From: a virus
Strand: one strand, 5' to 3'
IMG/VR virus record: IMGVR_UViG_3300047476_000577
Span: 1-64,000 of that record
Length of the DNA stretch: 64,000 bases
A program made the translations under genes and the position numbers. Of this stretch, positions 38,884-64,000 are shown one piece after another. The notes beneath the pieces were generated by a model, which saw nothing but the letters and a program-made list of their open reading frames with translations, ran no database searches and was not told where the DNA came from. Each line of letters opens with the position of its first letter. Position 1 is the stretch's first letter.

Positions 38884-38892
38884 AAGTATCTC

Positions 38893-44320: not shown

Positions 44321-44341
44321 ATGTTTTCCTCTTTATTTTGA

Positions 44342-44349
44342 TATTTAGT
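44342..44349 (-). promoter_or_regulatory. Late promoter motif ACTAAATA
   Basis: Upstream of GAGGA and the desaturase ATG. Confidence 0.45.
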
Positions 44350-45909: not shown

Positions 45910-46756
45910 AATTAAATTCTGGGTCTAGCTGGGTATCTATAGACACTCGAACGAACCTTCTATCTCCCACGCTATCGGAAAATATTTCTCCCTCGCCTTT
46001 GCGGTGCATAGTGGCCCAATTATCGAAAATAATTAAATCTCCTATTTCCCAGTTGTGTGAGTACTGATATTTATTGCCCAGGTCTTTAACAACATTTTTT
46101 AAAATTTCGTTATCTAAATATTTTTTCTCTGTTCCGTGCTGTTCATACCAGGAGCGAATCCACCCGTTGTCCTGACTAACAGCATTTAATCTTAGAAACT
46201 TTTCTTTAGTATATGGATGTTCTTCTATAGCAGGTAAATCTTTTATATTAGTTCCTACTCGTTGCCAGCTTTGGTATGTGAAATATCTACGACTGTATTT
46301 TTCTTTTTCTTCTTGACTGAGGTCAGAATAAGCTCTTGCCATATTTGAAACATCAGTGGTCATACCTTTAAATTTAGAAGGGAGATCGATGCAGTATAGC
46401 ATTCTACTAGGATATCTTGCAAAGCCGGGTTCATTGGCAATATCTACGTGCCAAGGAATTCCTGAAAATAATCTTGCGTAGCTTTTATTAGTATAGTCTG
46501 TATAAGATCTTCCTTGATTATCAAATCTTGCATCTTCTTTAATTGACTTATAATCTTTATACGCCCACGGCTTACCTAGCTTTTCCCCTAGATCTATTAT
46601 TTTTTTAGGACTAAGGTTGTGCCATCCTTTAAACACTAATACTTTATGGGTGAATAGCAGATGTCGTAAATCACTATTATCGACTGCCATTACTTCGTCG
46701 TATGATAGGTTTATTTTAATTCCTATAAAATCAGTGAGGGAAGTGTAGGGTATCAT
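45887..46756 (-). CDS. TauD/TfdA-family Fe/2OG dioxygenase
   Basis: WHVD...HNWEIGDLIIFDNWATMHR...RRFVR. Confidence 0.85.
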   Translation of the reverse strand: MIPYTSLTDFIGIKINLSYDEVMAVDNSDLRHLLFTHKVLVFKGWHNLSPKKIIDLGEKLGKPWAYKDYKSIKEDARFDNQGRSYTDYTNKSYARLFSGIPWHVDIANEPGFARYPSRMLYCIDLPSKFKGMTTDVSNMARAYSDLSQEEKEKYSRRYFTYQSWQRVGTNIKDLPAIEEHPYTKEKFLRLNAVSQDNGWIRSWYEQHGTEKKYLDNEILKNVVKDLGNKYQYSHNWEIGDLIIFDNWATMHRKGEGEIFSDSVGDRRFVRVSIDTQLDPEFNYGNTNTK

Positions 46757-47330
46757 TTCGTACGTCCATTATAATATGTATGCGATCACTGTCTCCTTTA
46801 TTAGATGCCCAGTGCATAGTTTTATTGTCAAACACCCATAATTCTCCTTGCTCGAAGCGGACAGTTTCTGTGTCTTCTTTACTACCACAACTAAAGCTAA
46901 CTCCGTTGTTAGTTTTAAGTACGATATGATATCTATCGTGCAAATCAAAGTATTTTCCTGGATCAATGTGAGGATATATGTTGCCGCCTGGGACCATTTT
47001 AGCAATATAGCATCTTCCTAATTTAGATCCCGGCAGCGCCAATAATAAGGCACTATTAATTAATTTTCTACAAGCAGGAAGTCTGTACATTGCCTCTGCG
47101 TCTACTGCTTCTAGCATTTTATCTGCTAGTTCTTTCGCTCCTCGGGCATCAGATATAGAATCGCTTTTATGATTCTTGTCGTGAATTCTTAGGTGAATAG
47201 ATTGCCCTTCCCTGAGAGGAGGGCTTTGCTCTGGCCTTGCTGTATGCGGCCCAAACAAGTGATAATTTTGCATAACCTCTTCTAAGGCTTCTGTTACATC
47301 AATGTTACCTATAAATTTAAAATATTTCAT
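46731..47330 (-). CDS. Aspartyl/asparaginyl beta-hydroxylase-family dioxygenase
   Basis: PGGNIYPHID, RYHIVL, GELWVFDNKTMH..N...DRIHIIMD. Confidence 0.85.
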   Translation of the reverse strand: MKYFKFIGNIDVTEALEEVMQNYHLFGPHTARPEQSPPLREGQSIHLRIHDKNHKSDSISDARGAKELADKMLEAVDAEAMYRLPACRKLINSALLLALPGSKLGRCYIAKMVPGGNIYPHIDPGKYFDLHDRYHIVLKTNNGVSFSCGSKEDTETVRFEQGELWVFDNKTMHWASNKGDSDRIHIIMDVRNDTLHFPH

Positions 47331-47902
47331 ATCGTGTCAAATAGTAAGTGTACCCGGTCATCCTGGCTAGCGTTCATTGCAGTGTGCATCGCAGTTGAAA
47401 CTAAACTGTAGAGTTTACCTTCAGTCTCCATAGTATATAACCCGTGTTCAGTTACAATGAAGCATCTAGGATTTGTAATAATGGGAACGTGATAACGTAT
47501 TAGATCATCGTCCTTGTGCCAGCTGTAGCAAGTTTTAGATCTAAGCATCATTAGCCTAATTCTGCCAATCGGTCTTGTGCTAAATTCTCTAACTTTGTTA
47601 ATTACAAATTCAAAATATGTATTCTTTACAGCAGGGTGCAAGTGGGTAAATTTTTCTTTTTCTTTACCCTCTTGATATACACGATTAAGTCTGTTGTCGA
47701 GTCCTGGCTTGATAATACTGCCTATACCATCGTATATTTGATCAGCAGGATCATCATACTCGCCTGTATGCACAAGGCTTAATTGATTGCTGTGCGGATG
47801 CCAGGGGTACTTTTTAAGCAAAAACCCTAGTTCCATTTTTAATTTCAGCTTGTCAAAAACTATAGGATAGGATTCGACATCTATTACGTTATCATTAAAC
47901 AT
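47327..47902 (-). CDS. Aspartyl/asparaginyl beta-hydroxylase-family dioxygenase
   Basis: RIRLM...YSWHKD, RYHVPIITN, HTAMN...DRVHLLFD. Confidence 0.82.
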   Translation of the reverse strand: MFNDNVIDVESYPIVFDKLKLKMELGFLLKKYPWHPHSNQLSLVHTGEYDDPADQIYDGIGSIIKPGLDNRLNRVYQEGKEKEKFTHLHPAVKNTYFEFVINKVREFSTRPIGRIRLMMLRSKTCYSWHKDDDLIRYHVPIITNPRCFIVTEHGLYTMETEGKLYSLVSTAMHTAMNASQDDRVHLLFDTI

Positions 47903-47907
47903 ACACT

Positions 47908-47915
47908 TATTTATA
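47908..47915 (-). promoter_or_regulatory. Late promoter TATAAATA heading enzyme cluster 1
   Basis: Exact consensus, 5 nt before ATG 47902. Confidence 0.7.
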
Positions 47916-47936
47916 GATGCAATACCTTGGCTTTTC

Positions 47937-48488
47937 TTAATCTAGAGCAAAAGTTATTGTCCATTGTAGTGTATGTTGAATCATTTCCGGTTCGTCGTTT
48001 ATTGTAGCGTTTTTATACCACTTGCTCATCGGGTGGTGCTCACTTTTCATTGCACGTTTGAATATAGTAAGCAAACCTCGATTGTACTCGTTAACAGTAA
48101 TCATTGCGCGAGTGGCACCATTTGCTTTAGCCCATTCTAGCTGCTTAGGTAACAAGTATTCGTGTAACAGGTATTGTGTTCTGAACTCTTTCAGCGTCCA
48201 AGTTCTAACTAAAAGAATTGCAGTGGAATCTTTTATGTATACGCCACTAGCAGATATAGTCTGCATATCGTTGCATAGTACAAAGTATTGCCCAGTTGGC
48301 GGGACAAGTCGCTGCTCGTTATAAAGCAAAAAAAGTACACTAGCGGGATTATTTTCCCAGTCAGTGTACTTCATATTAGAAGCAGCAGGATGTTTAGGCT
48401 CTGCTGCTTCTATGGTTTTACAGAATCCAGAAACTAGCCTATAGTGATCTGGATCTTCTTTGTTAATTGCAATTACGCTATAGGTCAT
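47937..48488 (-). CDS. GNAT-family acetyltransferase-like protein
   Basis: [12 protein letters not shown]...LEWAKANG...ITVNEYN. Confidence 0.65.
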
Positions 48489-49384
48489 ACTGCCATTGCA
48501 GCCTTGATAGCACCGTGAGATTGATAGCCCACTAGCTCGATGTCTGCCATAGTAAATCCGTCAATGTCTTTAATTGCAGGATTTAGTTTTAGCGTAGGTA
48601 AAGCCAGTGTCTCTCGTGACAGTTGTTCTTTAACTTGCTCTACGTGGTTGGAGTAGATATGGGCATCGCCGATAGTATGCACAAACTCGCCCACACCTAA
48701 ATCGCACACTTGAGCAATCATATGTGTAAACAGGCTGTAGCTAGCAATGTTAAATGGGACACCCAAGAAGAAGTCTGCACTACGCTGGTACATCTGGCAG
48801 CTTAATTTTCCGTTGCGTACATAGAATTGTGCAAAACTATGACAAGGAGGCAATGCCATTTGATCTAGTTCGCCGGGGTTCCACGCAGATATAATATGAC
48901 GCCTATCCTCGGGCTTTGACTTAATGCCAGCAATTAGATTTGCTAGCTGATCTACTTCTGTTCGATCAGCAGCTACCCTGACACCACCTAGGTGAGCATC
49001 TCCCATATCTTTACGTTCAGTATACTTGCGCCAGTGTCGCCACTGTACACCATATACACGGCCTAAGTCGCCTTCGTACTGTGCTTTAGGTGTCCAATAG
49101 TCTGCTTGTGCATTAGCAGTCCATATTGTAGATTTTGCATCATCTCGAGTACCGTGCAGAATTTCTGCTAGTCTACGTTCGTCGCCGCTGCCTTCAATGA
49201 ACCAAAGTAATTCCGACACCACACTTTTCCAGGCTAGCTTCTTTGTAGTGACAGCAGGAAAGCCTTTAGTTAGGTCATAACGGCTTTGCATACCAAACAC
49301 ACTGATAGTACCAGTGCCTGTACGGTCTTTTGATTCTACACCGTTATCTAATATAAATTGTAAATCTTTTAAGTATTGTTGCAT
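48485..49384 (-). CDS. thyA: Thymidylate synthase
   Basis: [46 protein letters not shown]. Confidence 0.97.
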
Positions 49385-49833
49385 CTTAACCAAGTCTCAA
49401 ATGCGAGCTCTGCTTTTACGGTACATTCATTAAACGTAAAATTATCTAGCAAAGCTTCTGTATCAATGAAAGTATCGCATTGATAGTCACTAGAAAAACG
49501 TGTAACGTACACAGTGTCTATCCTGTCGATAAACGACTGTATCAATTTAGCACCGCCTATTACTACTGCATCTGCAGGTATAGCAGGGTCGTCTATTGAT
49601 TGTACTGTAATAACACCGGGTATGTCAATAGGCTTGCTAGTGACTATAATGTTTGTTCTATTAGGTAATGGCTTAGGGAAAGCAGGATCGTCCCAAGTCT
49701 TGCGGCCCATTACTACTGTTTTGCCTAATGTGTGTTGTTTAAACCAAGCAAAGTCTTCTTTATTTTTTGGCCAAGGTAGTGTACCGTCTTTGCCGATCCC
49801 GCCATTAGAATCGACTGCAAATATAGCCTTCAT
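49369..49833 (-). CDS. folA: Dihydrofolate reductase
   Basis: [38 protein letters not shown]. Confidence 0.95.
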
Positions 49834-51308: not shown

Positions 51309-52505
51309 TTATTTGTGCTTGAACTCGTAGTGTGCAGTTACGCCAAACGGTGCTTCAATGTTTGGGCCGCCGTGTACTACGAATAGTGTGTCGCAGTAGT
51401 CTGGGTCACCCCATTCGCCGCAAGGGTAACCGTCTGTAAACATAATGAACTGTTTGGGCTGGATATCCCGTTCTTTCATATATTCCCAGTTAGCTTCGAA
51501 CATAGTACCACCACCGCCTTGAGGCTCGTAGTCTGCAATGTCATCGCCTGCATCACTGCTAAAGTCGCGCTCTGCGTACACTTGAGTATCGAAACACCAA
51601 ATCTTAATGTTCCAACTATCAAAGGTACCCATAATGCCTTGAATCTCGCCAAGGAAGTCTTTAACCATATCGTTAGAGATACTACCTGAAGTGTCAATGG
51701 CAATACACACATCTACTTCTTCAGCAGGTAGCATACCCGGCAGCACTGCACCAGTATGCCAGCTCTTGCGGCTAGGACGAGTAAACGAGTAGTCGTTTTT
51801 AATCATACTAGTCAATTGGATGCGGCACAGTTCTTGCCAAGGCATTTTTGGATCTGTAATGTTCTTAACAATACGATCTACGCCAGTCGGCAAATTGCCT
51901 GCACCAGCAGCCTGTGCTGCCTGGATAACTGCATCTTTAAGCTCGTCACGCAGAGCTTTGCGCTCTTCTTCGGTTAGCTTCTTGCCAATGCCGGACTTGC
52001 CGTCGCCATCACCGTCTTCGCTGTCGCCGTCACCTTCTAAGTCCAAGTGAGTGTCGAGTGTCATCTTAATAGTGACAGCATTTTCCATTAGCTTGTCGTA
52101 GACTTCGTCAGTAGTCATACCATCATACTGTCGGTCTGCGAGGATAGGAACTACCTTAATTACATCGCCAATGCGGTCACGAATGAGGCCGTTGTTAATA
52201 ACATAGTCAGCCGCCATATTCCACACTTGGGGCTCACGCTCGCCTCGGCGTAGCATATGCTCGTAGACGCAGTGCATAACTTCGTGAGCAATTAGAAAGA
52301 TGAGCTCACCGTCTGACAACTTAGAAACAAATTCGTCGTTATAGAACAAATTACGACCATCTACTGCGGCAGTAGGAATACGGTCGCTGGCATCCACAAT
52401 CTTAAGACGAGTTGCAAGGTTACCAAAGAACGGGTGATGCAATAGCAGTTTTACACGGGCTTTGGTAATACGATCTCGTTGCTTAGAAGCAGTTACAGTA
52501 GTCAT
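51309..52505 (-). CDS. Metallopeptidase-vWA protein (DUF2201-like)
   Basis: HEVMH zinc motif, WNMAADY, MIDAS IDTSGS, GGGGTMF, FTDGY. Confidence 0.85.
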   Translation of the reverse strand: MTTVTASKQRDRITKARVKLLLHHPFFGNLATRLKIVDASDRIPTAAVDGRNLFYNDEFVSKLSDGELIFLIAHEVMHCVYEHMLRRGEREPQVWNMAADYVINNGLIRDRIGDVIKVVPILADRQYDGMTTDEVYDKLMENAVTIKMTLDTHLDLEGDGDSEDGDGDGKSGIGKKLTEEERKALRDELKDAVIQAAQAAGAGNLPTGVDRIVKNITDPKMPWQELCRIQLTSMIKNDYSFTRPSRKSWHTGAVLPGMLPAEEVDVCIAIDTSGSISNDMVKDFLGEIQGIMGTFDSWNIKIWCFDTQVYAERDFSSDAGDDIADYEPQGGGGTMFEANWEYMKERDIQPKQFIMFTDGYPCGEWGDPDYCDTLFVVHGGPNIEAPFGVTAHYEFKHK

Positions 52506-52528
52506 TGTCAATTCCTTATTAAGCCATT

Positions 52529-52557
52529 ATTATAGCACACTTGCATTTATCGGTCAA
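52529..52557 (-). promoter_or_regulatory. Early promoter TTGACC-17-TATAAT
   Basis: Consensus match upstream of the vWA gene. Confidence 0.75.
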
Positions 52558-52562
52558 ATAGT

Positions 52563-52588
52563 AAAAAAGCGCCTTGCGGCGCTTTTTT
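52563..52588. terminator. Intrinsic terminator
   Basis: aaaaaagcgcc-ttgc-ggcgctttttt. Confidence 0.85.
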
Positions 52589-53669
52589 AGGCAATGTCAA
52601 TTACCAAGTGAGCGTACTTCTTAAAGAACTCTGGGAAGTTCTTGAGCTTCTTGTGCTGGAAAGGCAGCTCGTGAATCTTAAGAGCAGTGTGAGCACCCAT
52701 AATAACCATTTCTGGTTCAAAGTTATCCATCATATACTGGATAAAGTTCTCACACATTGGATGCCAATCATCGAGCTTCTTCTCTTTAGAGAGATTCTCA
52801 AACGCAGCCTTGAGTTCGTAGCACAGACTAGTAGTCAGTGAGTACATTGCAGACACTTCCTTAACCTTCAGGTCCTTGACCTTGCCTGCAAGGATCTCAG
52901 TAGGGTCTGGCAGTTTAGCGGCAATCTTGCGATGCGCCATAAACTTAATAGCAGTGCCTTCACCTACGCAACCTGCAACGATGTCGCTCATAGTACCTTC
53001 GCTGAGCTCGTCGGTTAGCATTTCGCTAACGAAACTCCAAGAGCGAGGAGTAGCGAAGCTACGGTCGTGAACTTTGGGGTCAAAGTTGTTGAGGTCGTTC
53101 TTAGCAAAAGTTAGGTAACCAACAACGTCCGGATGGACACCATTCTTAAGAGCCCAGTTGGACCAGTCAGCAAAGTCCACACGCAGTTCCAAGTGAATGA
53201 AACGGTTAGCCAGTGGGCTAGGCATACGGAAAGTAACGCCCTTGTCTGACATACGGTTACCTGCGGCAACGATGCCAACATTCTTAGGTAGCTTGTAAGT
53301 GCCAACACGGCGGTTAAGGATCAGCTGATAAGCCGCAGCCTGAACAGCAGGAGCCGCAGACACAAGCTCGTCCAAGAACAGGATAGCGTCACTGTCTTCG
53401 TCCTGCGGCAGTTCTGCAGGAGGAGCCCAGCTCATATTGTTGTCAGTGGAATTGTAGTACGGGATACCCTTAATGTCGGTGGGCTCCCAGAGGTTAAGAC
53501 GAACGTCAATAACCTTACGACCAGTTGCAGAGCCGATTTGAGCAATAAGGTCGCTCTTGCCAACGCCGGGGCCACCCCACAGCATAATAGGACGATCGCG
53601 TTTAAGTGCGTGACGGATAATGACGTCAGCTTCGGAAATTTTAACAGTACGGGTGTCAGTTGCAGACAT
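52587..53669 (-). CDS. MoxR-like AAA+ ATPase
   Basis: GGPGVGKS, LFLDEL, AAGNR, PLANRF, TPRSW. Confidence 0.9.
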   Translation of the reverse strand: MSATDTRTVKISEADVIIRHALKRDRPIMLWGGPGVGKSDLIAQIGSATGRKVIDVRLNLWEPTDIKGIPYYNSTDNNMSWAPPAELPQDEDSDAILFLDELVSAAPAVQAAAYQLILNRRVGTYKLPKNVGIVAAGNRMSDKGVTFRMPSPLANRFIHLELRVDFADWSNWALKNGVHPDVVGYLTFAKNDLNNFDPKVHDRSFATPRSWSFVSEMLTDELSEGTMSDIVAGCVGEGTAIKFMAHRKIAAKLPDPTEILAGKVKDLKVKEVSAMYSLTTSLCYELKAAFENLSKEKKLDDWHPMCENFIQYMMDNFEPEMVIMGAHTALKIHELPFQHKKLKNFPEFFKKYAHLVIDIA

Positions 53670-54423: not shown

Positions 54424-54645
54424 TTAACTGTAACGCAGTGTCCACAGCAGTTTTTCATTCAAATCTGCAAATTTTATACGAATGCCTGCATACTGTGGTC
54501 TTGCATCTTTCGGGTCCCACTCTAGGGTGTACGGCCCCGGGCACTTGAGTTGAAAGTTATGAGTGATAGCGTCTAGCGTGATGTCGTCTAACGGCTCGTA
54601 CGCATAGTGTGACATTATTTCTGACAAGACTTTTCGGTACAGCAT
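54424..54645 (-). CDS. FxLRW-family small protein
   Basis: Ends KFADLNEKLLWTLRYS. Confidence 0.65.
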   Translation of the reverse strand: MLYRKVLSEIMSHYAYEPLDDITLDAITHNFQLKCPGPYTLEWDPKDARPQYAGIRIKFADLNEKLLWTLRYS

Positions 54646-54896
54646 TAGCTCCACCTCAATGCAAACATAGTAGCAACCTCTGGGTCTCTAAAGAAATAGA
54701 TAGTCCTGTGCCCCGGTGTTAGTAAATCGTCGTCAGGATAGCACCAAGCATCGTAGTCATCATCTGCGTTCGGGCAATGGTCTCTTAGCCAGCAAGGTAG
54801 GTATACGATTTTATCGTAAAACTCTATAGGAGAACGGATTATAACTGGATGCCAGCTTTCGACAGTCTCGTACAAATGTCCTTCGTATTCTTTCAT
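54645..54896 (-). CDS. FxLRW-family small protein
   Basis: Ends YFFRDPEVATMFALRWS. Confidence 0.7.
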   Translation of the reverse strand: MKEYEGHLYETVESWHPVIIRSPIEFYDKIVYLPCWLRDHCPNADDDYDAWCYPDDDLLTPGHRTIYFFRDPEVATMFALRWS

Positions 54897-55150
54897 ACCC
54901 ACCTTAATATAAACTTAAATGCTGCCTCGTCGTTGTCAAACCAAAACCTGCTGCCGGTCCACGCATAGTGGTCTTCTCCAATGTGTTCCCCGCACCACCT
55001 ATGTACTTCGGGCCATTTCTTGTGACCTTCCTCGCTTAACAGCGCACTGGGGTAACCTTTGCTATTAAAAGCGTGTCTCCAGTCATAGTCTTGCACTGGC
55101 TCAAACAGCAACTTTGCTTTGATACTAGCAACATACTCTTTTATAGTCAT
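54893..55150 (-). CDS. FxLRW-family small protein
   Basis: Ends FWFDNDEAAFKFILRWV. Confidence 0.7.
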   Translation of the reverse strand: MTIKEYVASIKAKLLFEPVQDYDWRHAFNSKGYPSALLSEEGHKKWPEVHRWCGEHIGEDHYAWTGSRFWFDNDEAAFKFILRWV

Positions 55151-55656
55151 AACCAACGCAAAGTAAAGTATGCTGCATCTTCCTGACGTTTGAACCAAAT
55201 TTGTCCGTCGGGCCAGCGACAATGGTACTCTACACCCGATTCATCTAACCAGTCTAGCATTAGCTGATGAAGCCCGCCTGATTCGTTAAACGATACTTTA
55301 TACTGCCAAGCACTATAGTTGACTATGGGGTCAACTACAAACTCGGTAGTTAACGTCATTTCGTCAAAGTAAGCCACGCTCCAATCGGGCAATTCTGCTT
55401 GCAAACGCTGGCTAATTTTACGACCCCAATGACTAAAATGCTCAACATTAAAAGCATTATATATGGTTTTATCGCCTATGTCATATGCGTTGGAGTGATT
55501 GTCGTAGTGATCTGTCCATTTTAGTAGCTCATTAAACAAGTCATCGGAAATAGGGATTCTACTAGTATCCATCATTGTATAATCGTAAGCCCATACACCC
55601 GTACTCATATAGTCTGCACAAAGTTTGATGCACTTATTAAGATTTAATTTGCCCAT
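55147..55656 (-). CDS. Two-domain protein with C-terminal FxLRW domain
   Basis: Ends IWFKRQEDAAYFTLRWL. Confidence 0.7.
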   Translation of the reverse strand: MGKLNLNKCIKLCADYMSTGVWAYDYTMMDTSRIPISDDLFNELLKWTDHYDNHSNAYDIGDKTIYNAFNVEHFSHWGRKISQRLQAELPDWSVAYFDEMTLTTEFVVDPIVNYSAWQYKVSFNESGGLHQLMLDWLDESGVEYHCRWPDGQIWFKRQEDAAYFTLRWL

Positions 55657-56066: not shown

Positions 56067-56093
56067 AAAAAGGACTCCCAGGAGTCCTTTTTT
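56067..56093. terminator. Bidirectional intrinsic terminator
   Basis: aaaaaggactcc-ca-ggagtcctttttt between convergent genes. Confidence 0.85.
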
Positions 56094-57192
56094 AATTCCT
56101 GAACGGATTGTCAGGATTGTACCACATATTAGGGTTAACTACTTCGACGGGCTTAAAGTCACTGTCTATGCCGTCTAGCAGCTTGCGCTGGCCAAATACA
56201 GTATACAAGCTAGCCCTTTTAATTTTGTTCTTGTAGTATTCATAGTCCTTGTCGAACTTGAATATATCGTCCTTGGCAGCTTGTTTGTAGTTTTTCCAGT
56301 CCGGAATGATACGCACTTCGGGATGATTAATGCTCCAAATTTGGAAGTCGTCCGAGTGGTAGAAATGGTGCATATAAGTATCGTTCCACTCTGTAGACAA
56401 GTTAGAGTAATACCTAGGAGCAATCAGTGCATACATTCTAAAGTAAACGCTTTGCCACTTAAAGCAGAAATTATACCACCAGAAGAAGTCCGAATTCTTC
56501 TCTATGCTAATTCCGTACTTTCTTGCAGATGCTTCTACGGCATCTACTAACAGTGTTGTCACAGCTTGATCTTTAATTTTACTATCAATGTAGTTGAACA
56601 CCGCAACCTTGCTGTAGTTATTGCTTAGGCTTTCTGCCCCTTTGTTAGCAATATACATCTTCATCAAATCACTACCGAACAGCTGGTCATTAAATTCACC
56701 ACTTACTAAAATCATCGATCCGTCGAATAGCCAAGGTGTGTGCTCTGCATTTACTAGTTCGAAGTTAGGAAGTATATAGTCTTTGTAGAAGTTAGGGTTT
56801 TCGTTTGCAGCTTCTGCACTTGTGATAATTTTAATTTTGTCTTTTAGCACAGACATAGGATAGTTACGCAAAAAGCTAACCATAATCATAGTACTGTCAA
56901 TACCACCGCTCCACATAACGCCTAGTGGTTTTCCTAGTGACTCGCTTAAATCGAATAACTCTTTCGCCCTAGCATCGCAGCAATCTGTATAGGTCATTGT
57001 AGTAGTACGCAATGCAGGCAGCTCACATTTACTGTAGATGCTTTGTGCAACAGGCTGCTTGAACAACTTCATACGGTCATTCATACCTACAGCGTGGCCG
57101 ATAAGTCCGTATACTTTGCTCCATTTTAGTACATCCTTTCTAAAAGAATGATGTACAAATGATAGTGGATTGAAATAATATAAATCGCTCAT
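56092..57192 (-). CDS. Asparagine-synthetase-like (PP-loop) ATP pyrophosphatase, paralogue of 40322-41398
   Basis: MWSGGIDST, SGEFNDQLFG, NFCFKWQ, YKQAAK. Confidence 0.78.
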   Translation of the reverse strand: MSDLYYFNPLSFVHHSFRKDVLKWSKVYGLIGHAVGMNDRMKLFKQPVAQSIYSKCELPALRTTTMTYTDCCDARAKELFDLSESLGKPLGVMWSGGIDSTMIMVSFLRNYPMSVLKDKIKIITSAEAANENPNFYKDYILPNFELVNAEHTPWLFDGSMILVSGEFNDQLFGSDLMKMYIANKGAESLSNNYSKVAVFNYIDSKIKDQAVTTLLVDAVEASARKYGISIEKNSDFFWWYNFCFKWQSVYFRMYALIAPRYYSNLSTEWNDTYMHHFYHSDDFQIWSINHPEVRIIPDWKNYKQAAKDDIFKFDKDYEYYKNKIKRASLYTVFGQRKLLDGIDSDFKPVEVVNPNMWYNPDNPFRN

Positions 57193-57824
57193 ATAGAACT
57201 GTTCTGCCAAAATTCGCGAGCCATTGCACGTCTAATAGACTCTACTTCTTCTTTTCTAGTTACGCCGTTGATGTAACCCTTCCATTTTTCGGCTAGAGCC
57301 TGGATGCGGAATTTAGTCATTAAGTCTGACTCTAAACGTAGCTTTAATTCTTTGTATGCTTGCTCAACTGGAACTTCTAAGATTCTGGCGTATTCTTCTA
57401 ACATCCAGGTATAGTTCCCTGTTGTAGGATCAGATTGTTGTATTTGTTCTAGTGCAACGTGATCAAACTCTGCCCACCTGTAGCGTGTTTGTCTAGCTAA
57501 AGCCTGTGCTTGAAATGCTTCCCATCGTCCGAATAGTTGTTGTCTGATATTAAGAATATCTCGCATCTGTTTCCAGGATTCGGTAACGTGCTCGTCCGGT
57601 AATAACTGCAACGCATTTCCGTTTGGCTGGTCTAGTGTATAGCAGCCTTGCTTAAAAATCTCAGGATTTAACTTCCCGAAATCAACTGTATTGAAAGGGG
57701 TTAGAACTTTGATAATTGCATCACCGTTGCCCATAACTAGTGCGTTAGCAGTTATGATGCTAGTAGTCATCGTGTAGATACTAGCGTTCTCTAAACTAGT
57801 AATTAAATATCGTTCCTGGATCAT
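57189..57824 (-). CDS. Helical partner of the AsnB-like enzyme, paralogue of 41395-42024
   Basis: MLEEYARILEVPVEQAYKELKLR; ATGA overlap with the AsnB-like gene. Confidence 0.6.
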   Translation of the reverse strand: MIQERYLITSLENASIYTMTTSIITANALVMGNGDAIIKVLTPFNTVDFGKLNPEIFKQGCYTLDQPNGNALQLLPDEHVTESWKQMRDILNIRQQLFGRWEAFQAQALARQTRYRWAEFDHVALEQIQQSDPTTGNYTWMLEEYARILEVPVEQAYKELKLRLESDLMTKFRIQALAEKWKGYINGVTRKEEVESIRRAMAREFWQNSSI

Positions 57825-58741
57825 ATAATAAACTCCGCTGTCCATTCATAAAGCAGCTCTCTGCTTTTTTCCCAAACACATAAATGAGTTGCATTGGGCA
57901 ACACCTTAAAGTACGATGTACTGACAGGCAATAACTTATATAGTCTGTTAGTCACAAAGTAAGGATTCTCGATATCGTACTGAGATGTAGTAATCAGTAC
58001 TCGAGATTTTAACTCTGCAAACTTGAATGTCTTTAAGTGTTGAATGATGTTAGGGATTTTGCCCAACTTCCAATTGCCAGTAGCAGTGTCGAAACTTCTA
58101 TGATCTCTTGCAAGAGCTTCAAACGCTTGCTCTTTCCACAACGGTTCTCTGAAGTCTTTGCCGGCAGGTTGAGCCGCAGAAAATCGTTTGTCAATCGAAT
58201 CCATACCCACCATTGTATACGGCAACTTCTCGTCGACTTCGACGTAAAAGTTATAACCGCTTGGAGGATCGTCTTTTGCTTTAATCCATTTAGGGTTGAT
58301 GCTGATAATGTTGTCAACAAGTCCGGGATTGAGGACAGAGTACGTTATACACAGCGATCCTAAGTAGCTGAACCCTACTAGCGAAATCTTAGTGGTAGCG
58401 CCTAGTTTATTTTTAATGTAATTGATGGCTGATGTAATGTCCTGGTAGTAGTCCTCGATTGTTAAAGGACTTTTGACTAGTGATATATCTTCTACTAGTT
58501 GTTCTTCTACTGGACTACTTTGTCCGTAACCGCGAAGGTCTATTAGGAAAGCATCTACTCCGGCATCTGCCATATAATCGCCGTAGCTTTTGCTACCCAT
58601 TGCAATACCCATCGTAGACTCTACACACAGGCTTCTGCTATTAAACAATAAGATTGCATTACCCGTGTTAAACTTAGCAGGTATGTGCCGTATATAAAGG
58701 CTAGCAGTACCCGATTCTATAAAATTAATATTTTCTTGCAT
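57821..58741 (-). CDS. Alpha/beta hydrolase
   Basis: IDLRGYGQS, nucleophile elbow VGFSYLG, QYD and NATH (Ser-Asp-His triad). Confidence 0.8.
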   Translation of the reverse strand: MQENINFIESGTASLYIRHIPAKFNTGNAILLFNSRSLCVESTMGIAMGSKSYGDYMADAGVDAFLIDLRGYGQSSPVEEQLVEDISLVKSPLTIEDYYQDITSAINYIKNKLGATTKISLVGFSYLGSLCITYSVLNPGLVDNIISINPKWIKAKDDPPSGYNFYVEVDEKLPYTMVGMDSIDKRFSAAQPAGKDFREPLWKEQAFEALARDHRSFDTATGNWKLGKIPNIIQHLKTFKFAELKSRVLITTSQYDIENPYFVTNRLYKLLPVSTSYFKVLPNATHLCVWEKSRELLYEWTAEFII

Positions 58742-60197
58742 ATATAGTTGAGAACATATATCTAGAGTTGATGACTTGGATGTCAGAGAAGCCAGCAGAC
58801 TCTAGTGTTTCAAGGTACCATTTTAATGGTTTTGTAGTTAACACTCCTATTAGTGCTTTTTTCTTTTGCTGTATAACTTCTTCCGAAACTCCATTAGCAC
58901 GTTTGAAATCATAATACATTTCTTCCGTTTCCATACTATGATCCATTTTGTCTGAGATGATAACAAAGCCGCCAGTTTGTAAGTTGTCGTAGATGTCTTG
59001 TATATATTGTGCTCGTTCTTGAACAAAGTGCAGAGTCCAGTTAGCTAGTACAACGTTATATGACCCTTGCGGTAGCGTATTGCTTACGGTAACCAATTCA
59101 GGGTACTTGCTTCTGTCAACCATTGCTTGACTATTGTCTACGCCAACAACATCAGTGTATCCACGTTGAATAAATTTATCCATTGTGTTACCTAGAGCAG
59201 AGCCTACATCGATGACTTTAATGTCCTTTTTGCTTTTAAACACTTTACTAGTATAGTCGATGCAAAGGTCGATTACCCTGTTGTAATCGGGAATATGTGT
59301 TTCGGCTTCTTGTTGGAACCTATTAGCAACTGAACCATCGAACACCCAATGTTTATCGACTGGCATAACGTTAGGCATATCTTTCATACGCTCTTTTGCA
59401 GCGTTAATATTAGCCTTAACTAAGTCTCCTACTTGCCTTACGCCTGACTTCTCTGTTTTGTAGAATCTTAGCATATATCTGCTAGGTAATGGATATGTAG
59501 TAGGGCCCGGACGATTGACTAGTGTAGAGTACGAATCGTGTACTGTTTTATCTTCTAGCTGTTCTGGATAAATTAAACCTTCTTTGCTTTGGAAACCTAA
59601 CGACCCTAGGATAATTTTCATTGCATTAGGACTAGGTCTTGACCCAGCACCAGAGAACGCAGTGTTGGCATCTGAGCTGTTGATGTGCTGCTTCTTGATA
59701 ACGTCAATGATAGCAATGTCGGGAGATATCATTGGCCAAGGATAGATGCTGTCTGCAACAATAGAGTAGTCGCAAACCTTAGCTACCCGTTCAAGGAATC
59801 CGTAAGTGTCGAGGAAAGCATATATAACGCCAATCATAACTACAACGTCGTACTTTTTGCCCGCTGCAATCTCATTGTCCAGAAACTCTCTAATATCCCG
59901 TTCTACTATAGAAAACTTATCAGATGACCAATATTTTCCTAGCAACTCTCTACTAGTTGCAGCCATCTGCGGTTGCACTTCGACTCCGGTGTAGTGCTTA
60001 CAGCCTTGAGATAAGACCCACTGTCCAGTAGCGCCCAGGCAGCTACCTAAGTCTAAAACTGTCATTCCGTCTACTAGCCAATCTGGCGCCATTGCTTTAT
60101 GGCGTTTGTCTAGTGATTCTATGGTTACTCTACTGTAGCCTCGGTCTTTGCGTGTATCGTTCTCTACGAACTCTGGATATTGGCTAAAAAAGCTCAT
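58725..60197 (-). CDS. Two-domain protein: class I methyltransferase fused to a CmoA-like (carboxy-SAM synthase) domain
   Basis: N-terminal VLDLGSCLG; C-terminal WVFDGSVANRF, DVGSALG, GVDNSQAM, NWTLHFV, DFKRANGVSEEVIQQKK match CmoA motifs. Confidence 0.78.
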   Translation of the reverse strand: MSFFSQYPEFVENDTRKDRGYSRVTIESLDKRHKAMAPDWLVDGMTVLDLGSCLGATGQWVLSQGCKHYTGVEVQPQMAATSRELLGKYWSSDKFSIVERDIREFLDNEIAAGKKYDVVVMIGVIYAFLDTYGFLERVAKVCDYSIVADSIYPWPMISPDIAIIDVIKKQHINSSDANTAFSGAGSRPSPNAMKIILGSLGFQSKEGLIYPEQLEDKTVHDSYSTLVNRPGPTTYPLPSRYMLRFYKTEKSGVRQVGDLVKANINAAKERMKDMPNVMPVDKHWVFDGSVANRFQQEAETHIPDYNRVIDLCIDYTSKVFKSKKDIKVIDVGSALGNTMDKFIQRGYTDVVGVDNSQAMVDRSKYPELVTVSNTLPQGSYNVVLANWTLHFVQERAQYIQDIYDNLQTGGFVIISDKMDHSMETEEMYYDFKRANGVSEEVIQQKKKALIGVLTTKPLKWYLETLESAGFSDIQVINSRYMFSTIYARKY

Positions 60198-60220
60198 ATA
60201 TACGTCCTCTATTATGTACG

Positions 60221-60228
60221 TATTTATT
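60221..60228 (-). promoter_or_regulatory. Late promoter motif AATAAATA heading enzyme cluster 2
   Basis: Followed by GAGGA and ATG 60197. Confidence 0.6.
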
Positions 60229-60234
60229 GAGCAG

Positions 60235-60540
60235 TCAACTGAACTTCAATGCAAATTCAAATAGCAATTCATCGTCAGTGTCATCATTAAAGTCAACCCA
60301 TTGGTCAACAATGATATTAGATACTCCGTCTGTTCGTTTTGGTTCTGCAAAACTGCATACTCCGCCCATAGCCCAACCGCTGCCGTGTATCCATTCATTG
60401 CCACCCGGCTTCCAGTTTTTACTAATAGGGCCTATGTTTGTACTAAGCCAGACTAGTATAGGCGTGTCTGTATATTTGAGCTTTCTGGAATTATTGTTCC
60501 AAGGCTCCCATACATTTCTATTGTACCTAACTCTTTTCAT
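60235..60540 (-). CDS. FxLRW-family small protein
   Basis: Ends VDFNDDTDDELLFEFALKFS. Confidence 0.65.
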   Translation of the reverse strand: MKRVRYNRNVWEPWNNNSRKLKYTDTPILVWLSTNIGPISKNWKPGGNEWIHGSGWAMGGVCSFAEPKRTDGVSNIIVDQWVDFNDDTDDELLFEFALKFS

Positions 60541-60767
60541 AAGTCAAGTAAAAATTGTTCTTCTGTAGTCAAGTTAAGTATAAGATTTATCTTACCTTCT
60601 TGCAGCCATCTGTTGATGGTTAATGATATGTATTCGGCTTCGTCGCAGTCGTTAACCTTTACACCTATGCGTTTAAATGTCATACCGTCTGGTCCTTTGA
60701 CCCACGGGTTAACAACTGATATTAGTTTCTTTGGATCAGGTATTCGTACTATAGGTCGTATACTCAT
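60537..60767 (-). CDS. Small hypothetical protein
   Basis: ATGA overlaps on both sides within the array. Confidence 0.55.
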   Translation of the reverse strand: MSIRPIVRIPDPKKLISVVNPWVKGPDGMTFKRIGVKVNDCDEAEYISLTINRWLQEGKINLILNLTTEEQFLLDL

Positions 60768-61036
60768 TTTCCTGCCCACCTTAATTTAAACATCACTGCA
60801 TCTTCTGCAAGCTCGAATGCAACACTGTGGTGTAAGTTAACGTGATTGCCAGTTAAGTTACTGTCCAGCCAAGTGTATATGTCAACTAGTTCAACAATGT
60901 TGGGCTCTTTTTTGTATTCTACTAAATGCCAGCCTTGGCTAACTAGTACCTTACTTAATACTTCTCGGTCGATTTCGTTTTTAATTTCTTCTGCAAGAAT
61001 TTCTGCAAAATCTTGCGACACTGAATCACCGTCCAT
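60764..61036 (-). CDS. FxLRW-family small protein with capsid-like N-terminal helix
   Basis: AEILAEEIKNEIDREVL; ends VAFELAEDAVMFKLRWAGK. Confidence 0.7.
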   Translation of the reverse strand: MDGDSVSQDFAEILAEEIKNEIDREVLSKVLVSQGWHLVEYKKEPNIVELVDIYTWLDSNLTGNHVNLHHSVAFELAEDAVMFKLRWAGK

Positions 61037-61037
61037 A

Positions 61038-61265
61038 TTAGCTCCACCTTAATAAAAATAGCAGCATATCAGATTCTTCTTTGAACTTGATCCAGCCACC
61101 GTGACTATCCCATCCGCTGTGCACGCCAGTATCCGGGTCTGTCCCAGGATGCCCAAATGTATCCCATAGCCAGCCGTATACACTAAGAAACTCTTTTCCT
61201 TGAGGACTATAATACCATTCCCACTTATAATCTCTGTCAGGCCTGTGCTTAAATTTTATGTCCAT
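61038..61265 (-). CDS. FxLRW-family small protein
   Basis: Ends IKFKEESDMLLFLLRWS. Confidence 0.7.
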   Translation of the reverse strand: MDIKFKHRPDRDYKWEWYYSPQGKEFLSVYGWLWDTFGHPGTDPDTGVHSGWDSHGGWIKFKEESDMLLFLLRWS

Positions 61266-61449
61266 TACAATGTCCCCATTTTAGCGTAAACATTAGCGCA
61301 TCTCGTTCTTCTAAGCAAACATATATGTATGCTTGTCCTATTTGCCACAGGCCCCAGTTTGTTTCGTCTACGTAACCAGGGCAATGGTCATTGATCCACA
61401 TAAGTTGATCGTGCCACGTAGTAGGACAAGTAATCTCAACACGATTCAT
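61249..61449 (-). CDS. FxLRW-family small protein
   Basis: LEERDALMFTLKWG near the C-terminus. Confidence 0.68.
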   Translation of the reverse strand: MNRVEITCPTTWHDQLMWINDHCPGYVDETNWGLWQIGQAYIYVCLEERDALMFTLKWGHCNGHKI

Positions 61450-61706
61450 AACCACCGTAGCTTGAACATTACTGCTTCGTTGTCGTCTTTGATGCTAACA
61501 GTATACATAGGATCTCCGCTGTTAAAGCGATGCGTACAGTCTGCTGTTGGACAATTTGTCTCCATCCACATTTCAAACTCTCTGTCGTCTGCGGGATATA
61601 CCCAGCAGGTCCAACTACGAGGCGGCACCATCGGCCATTGAGACCCGGGGTTGATTGGATCTACACCATTATGGAATTCCCAATGATGCACTATAGTTTT
61701 TCTCAT
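61446..61706 (-). CDS. FxLRW-family small protein
   Basis: Ends IKDDNEAVMFKLRWL. Confidence 0.7.
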   Translation of the reverse strand: MRKTIVHHWEFHNGVDPINPGSQWPMVPPRSWTCWVYPADDREFEMWMETNCPTADCTHRFNSGDPMYTVSIKDDNEAVMFKLRWL

Positions 61707-61942
61707 CAAGCAGCCCACCTTAATCTAAATAGCATAATACTTTCTTTACTGTCGAGCAACCACCTGTCATATGCAACTCTTTTACCGCATCCAGTTGTTT
61801 TTACCCAAGCGTCAATTTCTTCAGCTTGCTCGTCCGTTAGCTCAACAAAAGAGTTCCATACCTTACTATACAGACCGTGATATGTTATGGCCTGTTTGAC
61901 CCATATTTTCCTGCGTAACAGTTTAAATGTAAAACGACTCAC
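61706..61942 (-). CDS. FxLRW-family small protein
   Basis: Probable GTG start; ends LDSKESIMLFRLRWAA. Confidence 0.65.
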   Translation of the reverse strand: MSRFTFKLLRRKIWVKQAITYHGLYSKVWNSFVELTDEQAEEIDAWVKTTGCGKRVAYDRWLLDSKESIMLFRLRWAA

Positions 61943-62397
61943 GCCTTGCCCTTGCCGCCGTAGTTTAGTTTTTCCCAAAACTCAAACTTGTGTTCTGCTT
62001 CTTCCCGCAACTTCTTTTCGTGCTCTGCAATACGGCGTGCCCTGCCTTCTTCCATTTTAGCAGTTTCTAATGTTTGTTGCACATCTGCAATAAAGCTAAC
62101 AAGACTTGTAGTAGACAACCGGTTTATTTCTTTGTTCAAGTTATAAATTTCAGTGTCCTTGTCGTCTATATCTCGTTTGTAATAGTCAATGTCATCTCTA
62201 AGTTTGCGGATATAGTCAGCAGGATACAAGTGTTCCCACTCGTATTCGAATGTACAGTCTACTGGATCCATTCCTGCTTCTTCTAACTCTACACGAATAG
62301 TATCATCGTTAATGATAGCAAGTAGGCGCCGAATGACAGGGTCAGTTGACTCTAAGTCAAGTTGGTTGATAAACTCTTTGTTGCTTAGTCCGAGCAT
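61939..62397 (-). CDS. Coiled-coil hypothetical protein
   Basis: 152-aa heptad-rich ORF within the array. Confidence 0.65.
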   Translation of the reverse strand: MLGLSNKEFINQLDLESTDPVIRRLLAIINDDTIRVELEEAGMDPVDCTFEYEWEHLYPADYIRKLRDDIDYYKRDIDDKDTEIYNLNKEINRLSTTSLVSFIADVQQTLETAKMEEGRARRIAEHEKKLREEAEHKFEFWEKLNYGGKGKA

Positions 62398-62747
62398 TAG
62401 TGTTTCCCCCAGCGTAATACAAAGTTAAAATAATCTTCTTGGTCGCGAATAAGAATACTGTTTTCAAATTTGTGCCACCAACGACTCCACGCATCGGGGC
62501 GTTTGGGGTGCGGCCCGAATTGTTCTTCGCACCACTTGTCTACTGCAAAATAATCAGCAGGATCAAATTCTGCCTGATACCAGTTCCTGCTGAACTTGTA
62601 TTTTGGTTCTTGCTGATTAAGTTTTATTTGCATTTCTTTAAGTATCTTATTTGCCAGGCGTTGAATCTCATCTAACAGTTGTTGGTCCAATGGCGGTATA
62701 GTTTGCCAGGCGTACATACTGTTAATGTCTAAATCTATGTGTTGCAT
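62397..62747 (-). CDS. FxLRW-family small protein
   Basis: WCEEQFG...IRDQEDYFNFVLRWGKH. Confidence 0.7.
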   Translation of the reverse strand: MQHIDLDINSMYAWQTIPPLDQQLLDEIQRLANKILKEMQIKLNQQEPKYKFSRNWYQAEFDPADYFAVDKWCEEQFGPHPKRPDAWSRWWHKFENSILIRDQEDYFNFVLRWGKH

Positions 62748-62965
62748 TATACACCTTGTGCAAGTTTAAACAAAAACATATCGTGCTCGTCTTTGAAGCA
62801 AAATGTAATATAGCAAGCATCGTATCCGCTGTACAATACCTTGCAGGATTCTTTTGGCATATTAATTTTGATCCAGTTACAGTAGTCATCAACTGTTGCA
62901 ACTTTCTTACCATTTGTCTTGACAGATAGTTGATACGGCCAATATTTTTTGTTAAGCACTCGCAT
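62747..62965 (-). CDS. FxLRW-family small protein (variant end)
   Basis: Ends FCFKDEHDMFLFKLAQGV. Confidence 0.68.
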   Translation of the reverse strand: MRVLNKKYWPYQLSVKTNGKKVATVDDYCNWIKINMPKESCKVLYSGYDACYITFCFKDEHDMFLFKLAQGV

Positions 62966-63200
62966 TGCTATATCTCAATTTAAAAATTAAATATGCTTCT
63001 CGATCAAGTAATTCAAAGCCTGCTAAGTTGTCGCCTACATACCAACAGCGAACGCCACTTTCCTTGAGTAGATCTATAGTTGATATTTTAGCATAGTTAG
63101 GATTAGTTTTGTATCGCTTAGTAACCAAAGCAATGAACTCATCACGAGCTTTGAACTGCTCGTATATGCTACAATTTTTTGGGATTAAACTTATTGCCAT
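62952..63200 (-). CDS. FxLRW-family small protein
   Basis: LLDREAYLIFKLRYS near the C-terminus. Confidence 0.65.
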   Translation of the reverse strand: MAISLIPKNCSIYEQFKARDEFIALVTKRYKTNPNYAKISTIDLLKESGVRCWYVGDNLAGFELLDREAYLIFKLRYSNASA

Positions 63201-63475
63201 CGCAGTAAAAACATTAATAAATCATCGTGGTCGCGAAACCAAAACGAACTGTTGTTAACAAACCACCTGTCTGACGAAGCAGGCCATTCATTGAGTGGGC
63301 GTTTTCCAAAAGTACTGTAGCACCAGTCTTCCAATTTCAACCAGTCACGCTGTAATTCTTGTTTACTGACCCCGTACGGCACCCACCAGTTTGTACCGCT
63401 AATGTAACTTACATTAGCAACATAATACCTTGCACCGTTTAATCGTTTTTCTTCTGTAGTGAATGTTAAATTCAT
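63191..63475 (-). CDS. FxLRW-family small protein
   Basis: WCYSTFG...FWFRDHDDLLMFLLRWQ. Confidence 0.7.
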   Translation of the reverse strand: MNLTFTTEEKRLNGARYYVANVSYISGTNWWVPYGVSKQELQRDWLKLEDWCYSTFGKRPLNEWPASSDRWFVNNSSFWFRDHDDLLMFLLRWQ

Positions 63476-63726
63476 TAGCTCCACTTCAGCTTCCATAACA
63501 TAAAAGCCTCGGGCTCGACAACTTCGATTTGGTTGATTTTATAACCTGCTTGGGTACCTTTAATCTCAACTTCAAAGTCCAATTTAAGACCTGCTTCTTG
63601 TTCAAGATAATATTTAAAAGCACGAACGAGGTTAGCATTGCCAATGTTATATTGCCAGTTTGGATCCCAGGCATCGTAGCAGTTGTTTAGCTGATTTTTA
63701 ATTTCTTTTTGATCAACGGTAATCAT
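63475..63726 (-). CDS. FxLRW-family small protein
   Basis: Ends VVEPEAFMLWKLKWS. Confidence 0.68.
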   Translation of the reverse strand: MITVDQKEIKNQLNNCYDAWDPNWQYNIGNANLVRAFKYYLEQEAGLKLDFEVEIKGTQAGYKINQIEVVEPEAFMLWKLKWS

Positions 63727-63911
63727 TGTGCCCACCTTAGTGCAAATAGTAACGCATCTTCTTGTTTATCGAAATTAAATGTAACGTGTTGGATTTTATT
63801 AACTACTTCCCAAGTCCGGTTAACGAGATTCATATCGTGTTCAGCCGCCCGATCTGAGCGAGCAGTGCACTCTACTATGTTGTTACATTTAACAGTTACA
63901 GGATACATCAT
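63723..63911 (-). CDS. FxLRW-family small protein
   Basis: Ends FNFDKQEDALLFALRWAQ. Confidence 0.68.
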   Translation of the reverse strand: MMYPVTVKCNNIVECTARSDRAAEHDMNLVNRTWEVVNKIQHVTFNFDKQEDALLFALRWAQ

Positions 63912-64000
63912 ACGTACCTCAATTCAAACATCATTGCATCTTCTGCTTTTTCAAACCAAAAATCCAATCTAGTACCTTGACTGTGGATTTGATAACTATA
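63908..64000 (-). CDS. FxLRW-family small protein, C-terminal part (runs off window end)
   Basis: Own translation YSYQIHSQGTRLDFWFEKAEDAMMFELRYV-stop. Confidence 0.65.
   Translation of the reverse strand, partial: YSYQIHSQGTRLDFWFEKAEDAMMFELRYV

Follow-up and report, generated by a model that had tools for sequence, protein, structure and literature searches.

What might a giant phage do with a single protein that joins a relative of CmoA, the carboxy-S-adenosylmethionine (carboxy-SAM) synthase, to a second domain of the S-adenosylmethionine (SAM)-dependent methyltransferase type? The question is raised by a 490-residue fusion encoded in a 64,000-nt stretch of freshwater giant-phage DNA, the first part of the 104-kb IMG/VR record IMGVR_UViG_3300047476_000577; we refer to this stretch as the window. 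In the familiar tRNA pathway, CmoA is the carboxy-SAM synthase, and CmoB is the carboxymethyltransferase acting on 5-hydroxyuridine at tRNA position 34 (ho5U34). An earlier sequence-only reading of the window had proposed that the fused protein might be a self-sufficient carboxymethylase, whose product would then be amidated by an AsnB-like ligase from the same operon. We find that the fusion belongs to a large phage-borne family, and we favor, with a probability of roughly 45%, the reading that it is a self-contained carboxymethylation enzyme that targets the tRNA wobble uridine, possibly followed by amidation in this lineage.

Architecture and distribution of the fusion protein

The sequence-only reading had described a CmoA-like C-terminal domain fused to an N-terminal class I SAM-dependent domain, and this description holds. 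The open reading frame (ORF) of 490 codons contains two class I methyltransferase domains according to Pfam, and both halves are matched by Pfam and NCBIfam models (Table 1). An AlphaFold2 model of the protein has a mean predicted local distance difference test (pLDDT) score of 92. Clustering at 90% identity yields more than 120 clusters that share the architecture, nearly all of them 450–530 residues long and most spanning the whole query, and 37 IMG/VR loci have it as well, so the fusion is neither a chance event nor an assembly artefact. These loci, which carry L-numbers below, were retrieved by an alignment-based search (a single-protein query retrieved none), and their sequence was fetched to at most 10 kb on each side of the fusion; four complete relatives of 160–170 kb that encode the fusion served as comparison genomes.

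In seven loci the two halves are encoded separately, by adjacent, overlapping genes whose order is unchanged. Such lasting fusion or pairing of the CmoA-like half with one transferase family is what would be expected of a cofactor maker and its cofactor user. To judge from sequence comparison, then, this is a large phage-borne family of joined carboxy-SAM-synthase-like and transferase-like halves.

The CmoA-like domain

For residues 279–489 the CmoA model TIGR00740 ranks first in NCBIfam (E = 6e-26, model positions 8–239 of 239). In the comparison by bit score it aligns over model positions 11–239, and its 92.7 bits compare with 39 for the runner-up family. The nearest solved structures by sequence are E. 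coli CmoA (PDB 4gek; E = 6e-16, or 8e-28 when the family profile is used) and H. influenzae YecO. The former is also the top structural match of the modeled C-terminal domain (Z = 25.0, root-mean-square deviation 2.3 Å over 204 residues). Because BelI (Z = 24.1) and MM_2633 (Z = 23.9) are almost as close, the fold alone cannot discriminate CmoA; the sequence motifs do. All four CmoA motifs quoted in the earlier reading are present and align column by column with E. coli CmoA: W284-x-F-D..V-A..F, DNSQAM, NWTLHF (NFTLQF in the E. coli enzyme) and DFKRANGVSEEVIQQKK (where E. coli CmoA has DFKRANGYSELEISQKR). Those that are specific to CmoA and lie outside the Rossmann core, the N-terminal W-x-F-D..V-A..F and the C-terminal F-K-R-x-N-G-x-S..E-I..K, are invariant or nearly so among 26–30 family members. 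By homology the domain is a divergent relative of CmoA, alignable over its full length.

How far does the divergence matter? The domain scores below the curated equivalog cut-off of TIGR00740 (193.3 bits), as do the CmoA proteins of Synechococcus phage S-B05 (115.6 bits) and Erwinia phage Y3 (142 bits). The S-B05 protein is 100% identical to the CmoA of S-B43, the assayed enzyme SpCmoA, and the latter is a carboxy-SAM synthase faster than its E. coli counterpart (PMC12783734). A further difference concerns Arg199, the sole side chain that touches the carboxy-SAM carboxylate in E. coli CmoA (PMC4482062). Its column is occupied by Lys446 here and by Lys, Glu, Gln or Ala across the family, and the earlier reading had taken this Arg-to-Lys change (in QQKK) as a hint that the activity may differ. 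We give it little weight. The S-B05 sequence has Glu in this column, so Arg199 is not required in an active synthase, and Lys198, just before it, is invariant in all aligned sequences. Neither Lys446 nor the sub-threshold score therefore argues against synthase activity, and we infer from homology that the domain makes carboxy-SAM.

The CmoB-like domain

Residues 1 to ~270 form a class I SAM-binding domain (Methyltransf_12 and other Pfam models) of a narrow family, matched at E ≤ 0.001 by 329 of 1.84 billion representatives. Its members are fused proteins of ~480–500 residues, stand-alone proteins of ~230–300 residues and a few longer forms of 716–769 residues. When aligned by hhalign with a 40-sequence profile, the domain matches E. 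coli CmoB with 96.4% probability (E = 1e-9, 148 columns), compared with 74% and 73 columns for CmoA, an arbitrarily chosen class I control. Of 26 fused members, 8 match the CmoB family model PF08003 (best E = 8e-7), and the 716-residue member P0256 scores 37.5 bits against it, for a cut-off of 23.8. Short clusters annotated as "tRNA mo5U34 methyltransferase" were among the nearest named ones in a feature-based look-up, which we treat as a lead only. Structure searches with the whole fusion model return lists filled by matches to the C-terminal domain, and the absence of CmoB from these lists is uninformative.

In CmoB, Lys91, Tyr200 and Arg315 bind the carboxylate of the carboxymethyl group, and Lys91 is essential for the choice of carboxy-SAM over SAM, such that the K91A mutant is a methyltransferase (PMC4482062). 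MAFFT alignment places Tyr126 of the fusion at Tyr200 (Tyr in 24 of 26 sequences) and Arg240 at Arg315 (25 of 26), within an HD...YPxPxR tail that the two proteins have in common. Among the comparisons run, this domain is closest to CmoB, and we infer that it, too, uses carboxy-SAM.

Association with tRNA genes

If the fusion transfers carboxymethyl groups, then its gene context points to tRNA as the target. Outside the window, at ~89.3–103.7 kb of the record, ARAGORN finds 42 tRNA genes. Eight are U34 family-box tRNAs: two each of Ala(UGC), Pro(UGG) and Thr(UGU), and one each of Val(UAC) and Leu(UAG). In E. coli these five species bear uridine 5-oxyacetic acid (cmo5U). The 42 tRNAs include no G34 partner for Ala or Pro. 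The four complete relatives have 24–33 tRNAs each, and the fetched stretch contains a tRNA in 17 of 37 loci, with at least eight in 12 of those 17. When the loci are clustered at 70% identity into lineages, which are not independent of one another, 13 of 28 have a tRNA no farther than 10 kb from the fusion, whereas the span of the arrays predicts ~15–20% (binomial P ~0.0015).

In three of the lineages the fusion gene lies inside the tRNA array. In L012 and L014 it has the same orientation, and 6 bp separate it from the next tRNA; L004 has the entire operon of fusion, hydrolase, partner and ligase placed in the array, 16 bp after a tRNA-Gly. The arrays also harbor other RNA-related genes, which encode a cytidine/deoxycytidylate-family deaminase (perhaps TadA-like), a DUF2828 Ro60-like protein, a P-loop kinase and two phosphatases.

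Several details of these arrays are recorded here in their own right. The stretches concerned (L004 1–13000, L012 1–7000 and L014 6500–16000) contain a PF00383/PF14437 deaminase, a DUF2828/DUF7788 protein, an AAA_33 kinase, a dual-specificity phosphatase, a metallophosphoesterase and an AspH-like oxygenase, which as a set resemble a tool kit for RNA care. ARAGORN also reports an odd tRNA with a two-base "tg" anticodon call in the phage's own array (L051 14219–14290), tRNAs with the amber-reading anticodon CUA (L007 2228–2303 and L028 1796–1872), and unusually long tRNA-Ile(UAU) genes of 92–95 nt in L012 (142–233), L024 and L028.

Other neighbors of the fusion gene differ strongly by lineage, and none is universal among the loci compared. 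They include class IV aminotransferase, alpha/beta-hydrolases, PP-loop enzymes and 2-oxoglutarate (2OG)-Fe(II) oxygenases. The last are the commonest immediate upstream neighbors, at 13 loci (for example, L008 6981–7661, PF13759-like, E = 8e-5), and could supply a hydroxyl acceptor. No homologue of this upstream oxygenase was found in the available part of the phage studied here. Small proteins with a common ...[DE]A..F.L[RK]W tail flank the operon on the minus strand (54424–55656 and 60235–64000), directly follow the fusion in L032 and L033 (L032 3900–5000), and occur also in L018 (~8870) and L050 (~1100–1700); around the same four-gene operon in L004, however, such an array is absent.

The downstream genes

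Downstream of the fusion, the genes of an alpha/beta-hydrolase, a helical protein and an AsnB-type enzyme are tightly packed, overlapping or abutting. The sequence-only reading had named the hydrolase and the ligase. Both are there, the latter with a predicted AsnB-type fold; what it did not mention is the intervening gene for a 218-residue, mostly helical protein. L002 and L004 have all four genes in the same order: fusion, hydrolase, partner, ligase. The hydrolase, a neighbor of the fusion (at most 10 kb away) in 9 of 38 loci, has catalytic residues (Ser125, Asp256 and His286) that are invariant in 9 homologues. The helical protein has no significant match in Pfam or the other family searches, and weakly resembles a paralogue elsewhere in the window (E = 6e-4).

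The AsnB-type enzyme, P0004, was modeled with a pLDDT of 92.4. The five structures closest to it all belong to the AsnB family (TsnB9, human ASNS, beta-lactam synthetase, carbapenam synthetase and AsnB, with Z = 11.8–8.8), whereas other PP-loop enzymes do not exceed 7.9. The matches cover the chain residues from ~170 on. In the model, P0004 thus resembles AsnB, beta-lactam synthetase, carbapenam synthetase and TsnB9 in combining a PP-loop with a helical synthetase-domain fold, which would imply adenylation of a carboxylate followed by attack of an amine. Unlike the classical enzymes of the AsnB family, it lacks a glutaminase domain, sequence comparison detects no resemblance to them outside the PP-loop (searches of Pfam and the PDB gave no match outside the SGGIDST motif, which is invariant in its own family), and it is paired with a helical partner of ~210 residues, which accompanies it always. 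The family comprises at least 608 clusters, is not represented by a Pfam model, and has viruses as the source of its nearest clusters; because a tblastn search of 50,697 phage records gave no match, it is known only from uncultured viruses. The closest relative has four copies, and each 160–170-kb genome has one, distant from the fusion.

The window itself holds a paralogous pair of PP-loop gene and helical partner, the PP-loop product being 30% identical to P0004 (E = 5e-44), and a member of a second PP-loop family (44980–45909). The second family is of interest because P0259 fuses a homologue of it (29% identity, E = 9e-28) to a homologue of the N-terminal domain studied here (37% identity, E = 2e-51), which lends independent support to a link between methyltransferase and PP-loop enzyme. 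Homologues of it also adjoin the fusion in L005, L013, L016, L022 and L035, with a 2OG oxygenase likewise adjacent in several lineages.

Both PP-loop genes lie in a co-oriented enzyme cluster (38578–48488, minus strand). It further encodes a B12-binding radical SAM protein (42024–43556), a fatty-acid-desaturase-like membrane protein (43556–44320), a TauD dioxygenase (45887–46756), two AspH-like oxygenases (46731–47902) and an autoinducer-synthase/GNAT-like protein. In other phages, members of several of these families are again found beside the fusion gene or the tRNA arrays.

The phage and other features of the window

The 104-kb record has an estimated completeness of 29% (CheckV), and a megablast of the region against isolated phages gave no match. 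Genes for a T4-type late sigma factor and an SbcD-like nuclease occur in the window, together with those for a DNA ligase and for hub and wedge proteins of the baseplate, from which we conclude that the record is part of a very large T4-like phage. Promoter and terminator scans of the window returned matches no commoner than in shuffled sequence, and the exact T4 late motif TATAAATA shows no enrichment across it; the promoter entry of Table 1 is to be read accordingly, as a consensus match only.

Apart from the subjects treated above, a canonical thymidylate synthase gene (362 bits) adjoins one for dihydrofolate reductase (48485–49833, minus strand), a pair that suggests an ordinary supply of dTMP. 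A MoxR-like AAA+ ATPase (52587–53669) is paired with a DUF2201 metallopeptidase/von Willebrand factor A protein (51309–52511), both on the minus strand (51309–53669). In L007 (13313–13810), a few genes downstream of the fusion, and in several of the 170-kb relatives, there is a 2H phosphoesterase resembling Acb1, which counters cyclic-oligonucleotide-based anti-phage signaling (CBASS).

Table 1. Features of the window that bear on the fusion gene; positions are those of the 64,000-nt stretch
Feature	Position	Strand	Basis or remark
Window	1–64000		64,000 nt, first 64 kb of the 104-kb IMG/VR record
Fusion gene, 490 residues	58725–60197	−	ORF without internal stops
Fusion N-terminal domain, CmoB-like class I methyltransferase, residues 1 to ~270	59388–60197	−	Pfam, CmoB alignment
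Fusion C-terminal domain, CmoA-like, residues ~280–490	58725–59360	−	TIGR00740, PDB 4gek, family profile
Sigma-70-like promoter match TTGACT-16-CATAAT, overlapping the late-promoter-like motif AATAAATA	60211–60238	−	14–40 nt ahead of the start codon; consensus match only
Alpha/beta-hydrolase, 306 residues	57821–58741	−	Abhydrolase_1, E = 2e-12; start overlaps end of fusion by 17 nt
Mostly helical partner protein, 218 residues	57189–57845	−	Position kept in L002 and L004
AsnB-type synthetase P0004, 372 residues, PP-loop SGGIDST	56092–57210	−	Likely start 57192
Paralogous pair: AsnB-type PP-loop gene (40322–41398) and helical partner (41395–42024)	40322–42024	−	Sequence comparison
Second PP-loop family, 309 residues	44980–45909	−	Homologue fused to the N-terminal domain family in P0259

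Discussion

In the reading that we favor, the CmoA-like domain would convert SAM to carboxy-SAM with prephenate as the carboxyl donor, and the CmoB-like domain would pass the carboxymethyl group to a nucleophile, presumably on tRNA. As targets one would expect tRNAs of the Ala(UGC), Pro(UGG), Thr(UGU), Val(UAC) and Leu(UAG) species, those of the phage as well as their host counterparts, and as products cmo5U-type bases that broaden codon reading. Fusion could have a simple rationale. In E. coli, carboxy-SAM is present at ~0.5 μM and SAM at ~200 μM, a ~400-fold difference (PMC4482062), and a fused enzyme would keep the scarce cofactor beside its user. The self-sufficient carboxymethylase of the sequence-only reading is thus a reading from homology, with which the separate but adjacent genes in seven loci and the retained equivalents of Tyr200 and Arg315 agree.

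The second half of the earlier proposal, that amidation follows carboxymethylation, fares less evenly. In this lineage the carboxylate, once installed, may be processed further by the products of the next three genes, the AsnB-type enzyme presumably adenylating it and joining an amine to form an amide. The phage ligase CmoY provides a precedent (PMC12783734), and P0259 points the same way. But P0004 and CmoY have only the PP-loop in common, and because no more than 10 of 38 loci have an AsnB-like gene at a distance of up to 10 kb from the fusion, amidation can at most be an extra step confined to certain lineages. That the four genes together build an undescribed wobble base, the fusion making cmo5U on phage or host tRNAs and the ligase, with partner and hydrolase as helpers, turning its carboxylate into an amide or an amino-acid conjugate, seems to us distinctly unlikely. 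Such a base would alter decoding by the phage's own tRNA set or confer resistance to host anticodon nucleases, and in sister lineages the 5-hydroxyl would come from the neighboring 2OG oxygenase, with no need for host TrhO and TrhP.

Apart from the patchy distribution of the ligase, several observations weigh against a tRNA carboxymethylase. The CmoB models NF011650 and TIGR00452 match the fusion protein marginally (E = 0.003), models of FtsJ and CpaM score like those of CmoB, and FtsJ matches are equally frequent. No residue aligns with Lys91 in the MAFFT alignment, although the invariant Arg16 and Arg19 are nearby in sequence. Lys91 has no partner because the N-terminal 90–100 residues of CmoB are absent and the phage domain starts at about CmoB residue 91–94; with both the lysine and this CmoB-specific domain missing, we write "CmoB-like" and not "CmoB." In the CmoA-like half, family-specific changes by the cofactor site are invariant (Phe133 to Trp, Gln136 to His and Gly38 to Asp), and a loop is shortened at Asp117–Ile118. 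As to the target, the window's operon is set in an array of small paralogous proteins, near structural genes and 29 kb from the tRNA array. The proximity of fusion and tRNAs across lineages may be inflated, because tRNA arrays belong to islands of accessory genes and because the lineages do not count as independent cases. Finally, a search for the hydroxylases TrhO and TrhP found neither encoded.

How does the phage protein compare with the systems already described, and do these suggest other activities? Like CmoA/CmoB of Gram-negative bacteria (PDB 4GEK and 4QNV), it combines a domain homologous to CmoA over its whole length with one that aligns with the catalytic domain of CmoB, Tyr200 and Arg315 equivalents included, and the two activities are genetically coupled, as in E. 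coli, where cmoA and cmoB are adjacent and overlapping; the phage context, moreover, is rich in tRNA genes. Unlike CmoA/CmoB, it is a single, phage-encoded polypeptide with the CmoB-like half first and the CmoA-like half second, and it differs in the missing CmoB N-terminal domain and Lys91, the replaced Arg199 and the altered cofactor site. Because Lys91 is absent and the cofactor-site residues differ, one or both domains might be ordinary SAM methyltransferases, of RNA for example, whose likeness to CmoA reflects ancestry and involves no carboxy-SAM. The behavior of the CmoB K91A mutant (PMC4482062) fits this idea, as do a C-terminal domain that scores far below the CmoA equivalog cut-off and is structurally nearly as close to BelI and MM_2633, the variability of the Arg199 column (Lys, Glu, Gln or Ala), and the matches of both halves to generic methyltransferase models. 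Yet the CmoA-specific motifs outside the Rossmann core are invariant, active SpCmoA likewise does without Arg199 and scores below the cut-off, the Tyr200 and Arg315 equivalents are retained, and persistent pairing or fusion with one transferase family fits a maker and a user of the cofactor. On balance, we consider plain methyltransferases unlikely.

The remaining alternatives retain carboxy-SAM and change its acceptor. TglE/TglF, which carboxymethylate a peptide thiol in the route to 3-thiaglutamate, and MccS with MccB's C-terminal domain, which act on a microcin C-like compound, both pair a CmoA homologue with a dedicated carboxy-SAM transferase and use acceptors other than U34 of tRNA, and in the Tgl pathway a hydrolase follows (PMC10491745). 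By analogy, the phage fusion might act on a peptide, a protein or a small molecule, with hydrolase, partner and ligase as tailoring enzymes of a phage-encoded biosynthetic pathway. The oxygenases (upstream in 13 loci), aminotransferase, hydrolases and PP-loop enzymes near the fusion would suit such a pathway, as would the second cluster in the window with its B12 radical SAM, TauD, AspH-like and desaturase-like proteins, the tailed small proteins that flank the operon and follow the fusion in L032, L033 and L018, and the longer family forms of 716–769 residues. Against this, the likeness to the Tgl and Mcc enzymes is one of pairing: these are unfused, belong to bacterial natural-product clusters and have defined peptide or nucleotide substrates, whereas at the phage locus no substrate gene of this type, precursor peptide or scaffold was identified. 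The neighbors, moreover, vary with lineage and none is universal, the small-protein array does not surround the operon of L004, and placement of the fusion inside tRNA arrays would be left unexplained. We therefore regard an acceptor of this kind as rather unlikely. Very improbable, and the least likely target, is the phage's own DNA, carboxymethylated and then amidated in a CmoX-independent version of the system of Synechococcus phage S-B43. There, CmoA, the C5-cytosine methyltransferase homologue CmoX (PF00145, with an SPPC motif and Arg350) and the AsnS-like, glycine-adding ligase CmoY produce 5-carboxymethylcytosine and its glycine amide on DNA (PMC12783734), and in S-B05 the three homologues stand together in the replication module. 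The shared logic is evident, a phage CmoA relative followed by an ATP-dependent AsnB-like ligase, here in the same operon, by which a carboxylate would be installed and then amidated, and the 2OG oxygenase, in many loci a neighbor of the fusion, could provide a base with a hydroxymethyl acceptor. But the transferase comes from another class I family and forms one protein with the synthase; it has no PF00145 match and neither a DPPY nor an SPPC motif. The fusion lies in tRNA arrays or accessory islands, not in a replication module as in S-B05 and Erwinia phage Y3, and the canonical pair of ThyA and dihydrofolate reductase suggests ordinary thymidine supply. The published system in its CmoX-dependent form we reject, since the 104-kb record and the four complete relatives contain no PF00145 C5-methyltransferase, and with it the candidacy of P0004 as a CmoY orthologue, as only 16–17 PP-loop columns align with the CmoY homologues of S-B05 and Y3.

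CmoA and CmoB are the setting in which carboxy-SAM serves tRNA modification. Two further settings are the peptide of TglE/TglF and the nucleotide antibiotic of MccS/MccB (PMC10491745), and CmoA/CmoX/CmoY, acting on phage DNA, has been known since 2025 (PMC12783734). The present family would add a fifth to these four, with synthase and transferase fused in one protein and distributed across large phages rich in tRNAs. As a compact enzyme that would produce the cofactor it needs, the fusion is also a candidate tool for carboxymethylation by biocatalysis. If an amide does follow, the product would be a new nucleoside. And if the target is tRNA, then these phages would carry their own wobble-modification enzyme together with their tRNA genes, which would bear on how phage tRNAs function in foreign hosts and in the face of defenses that target the anticodon.

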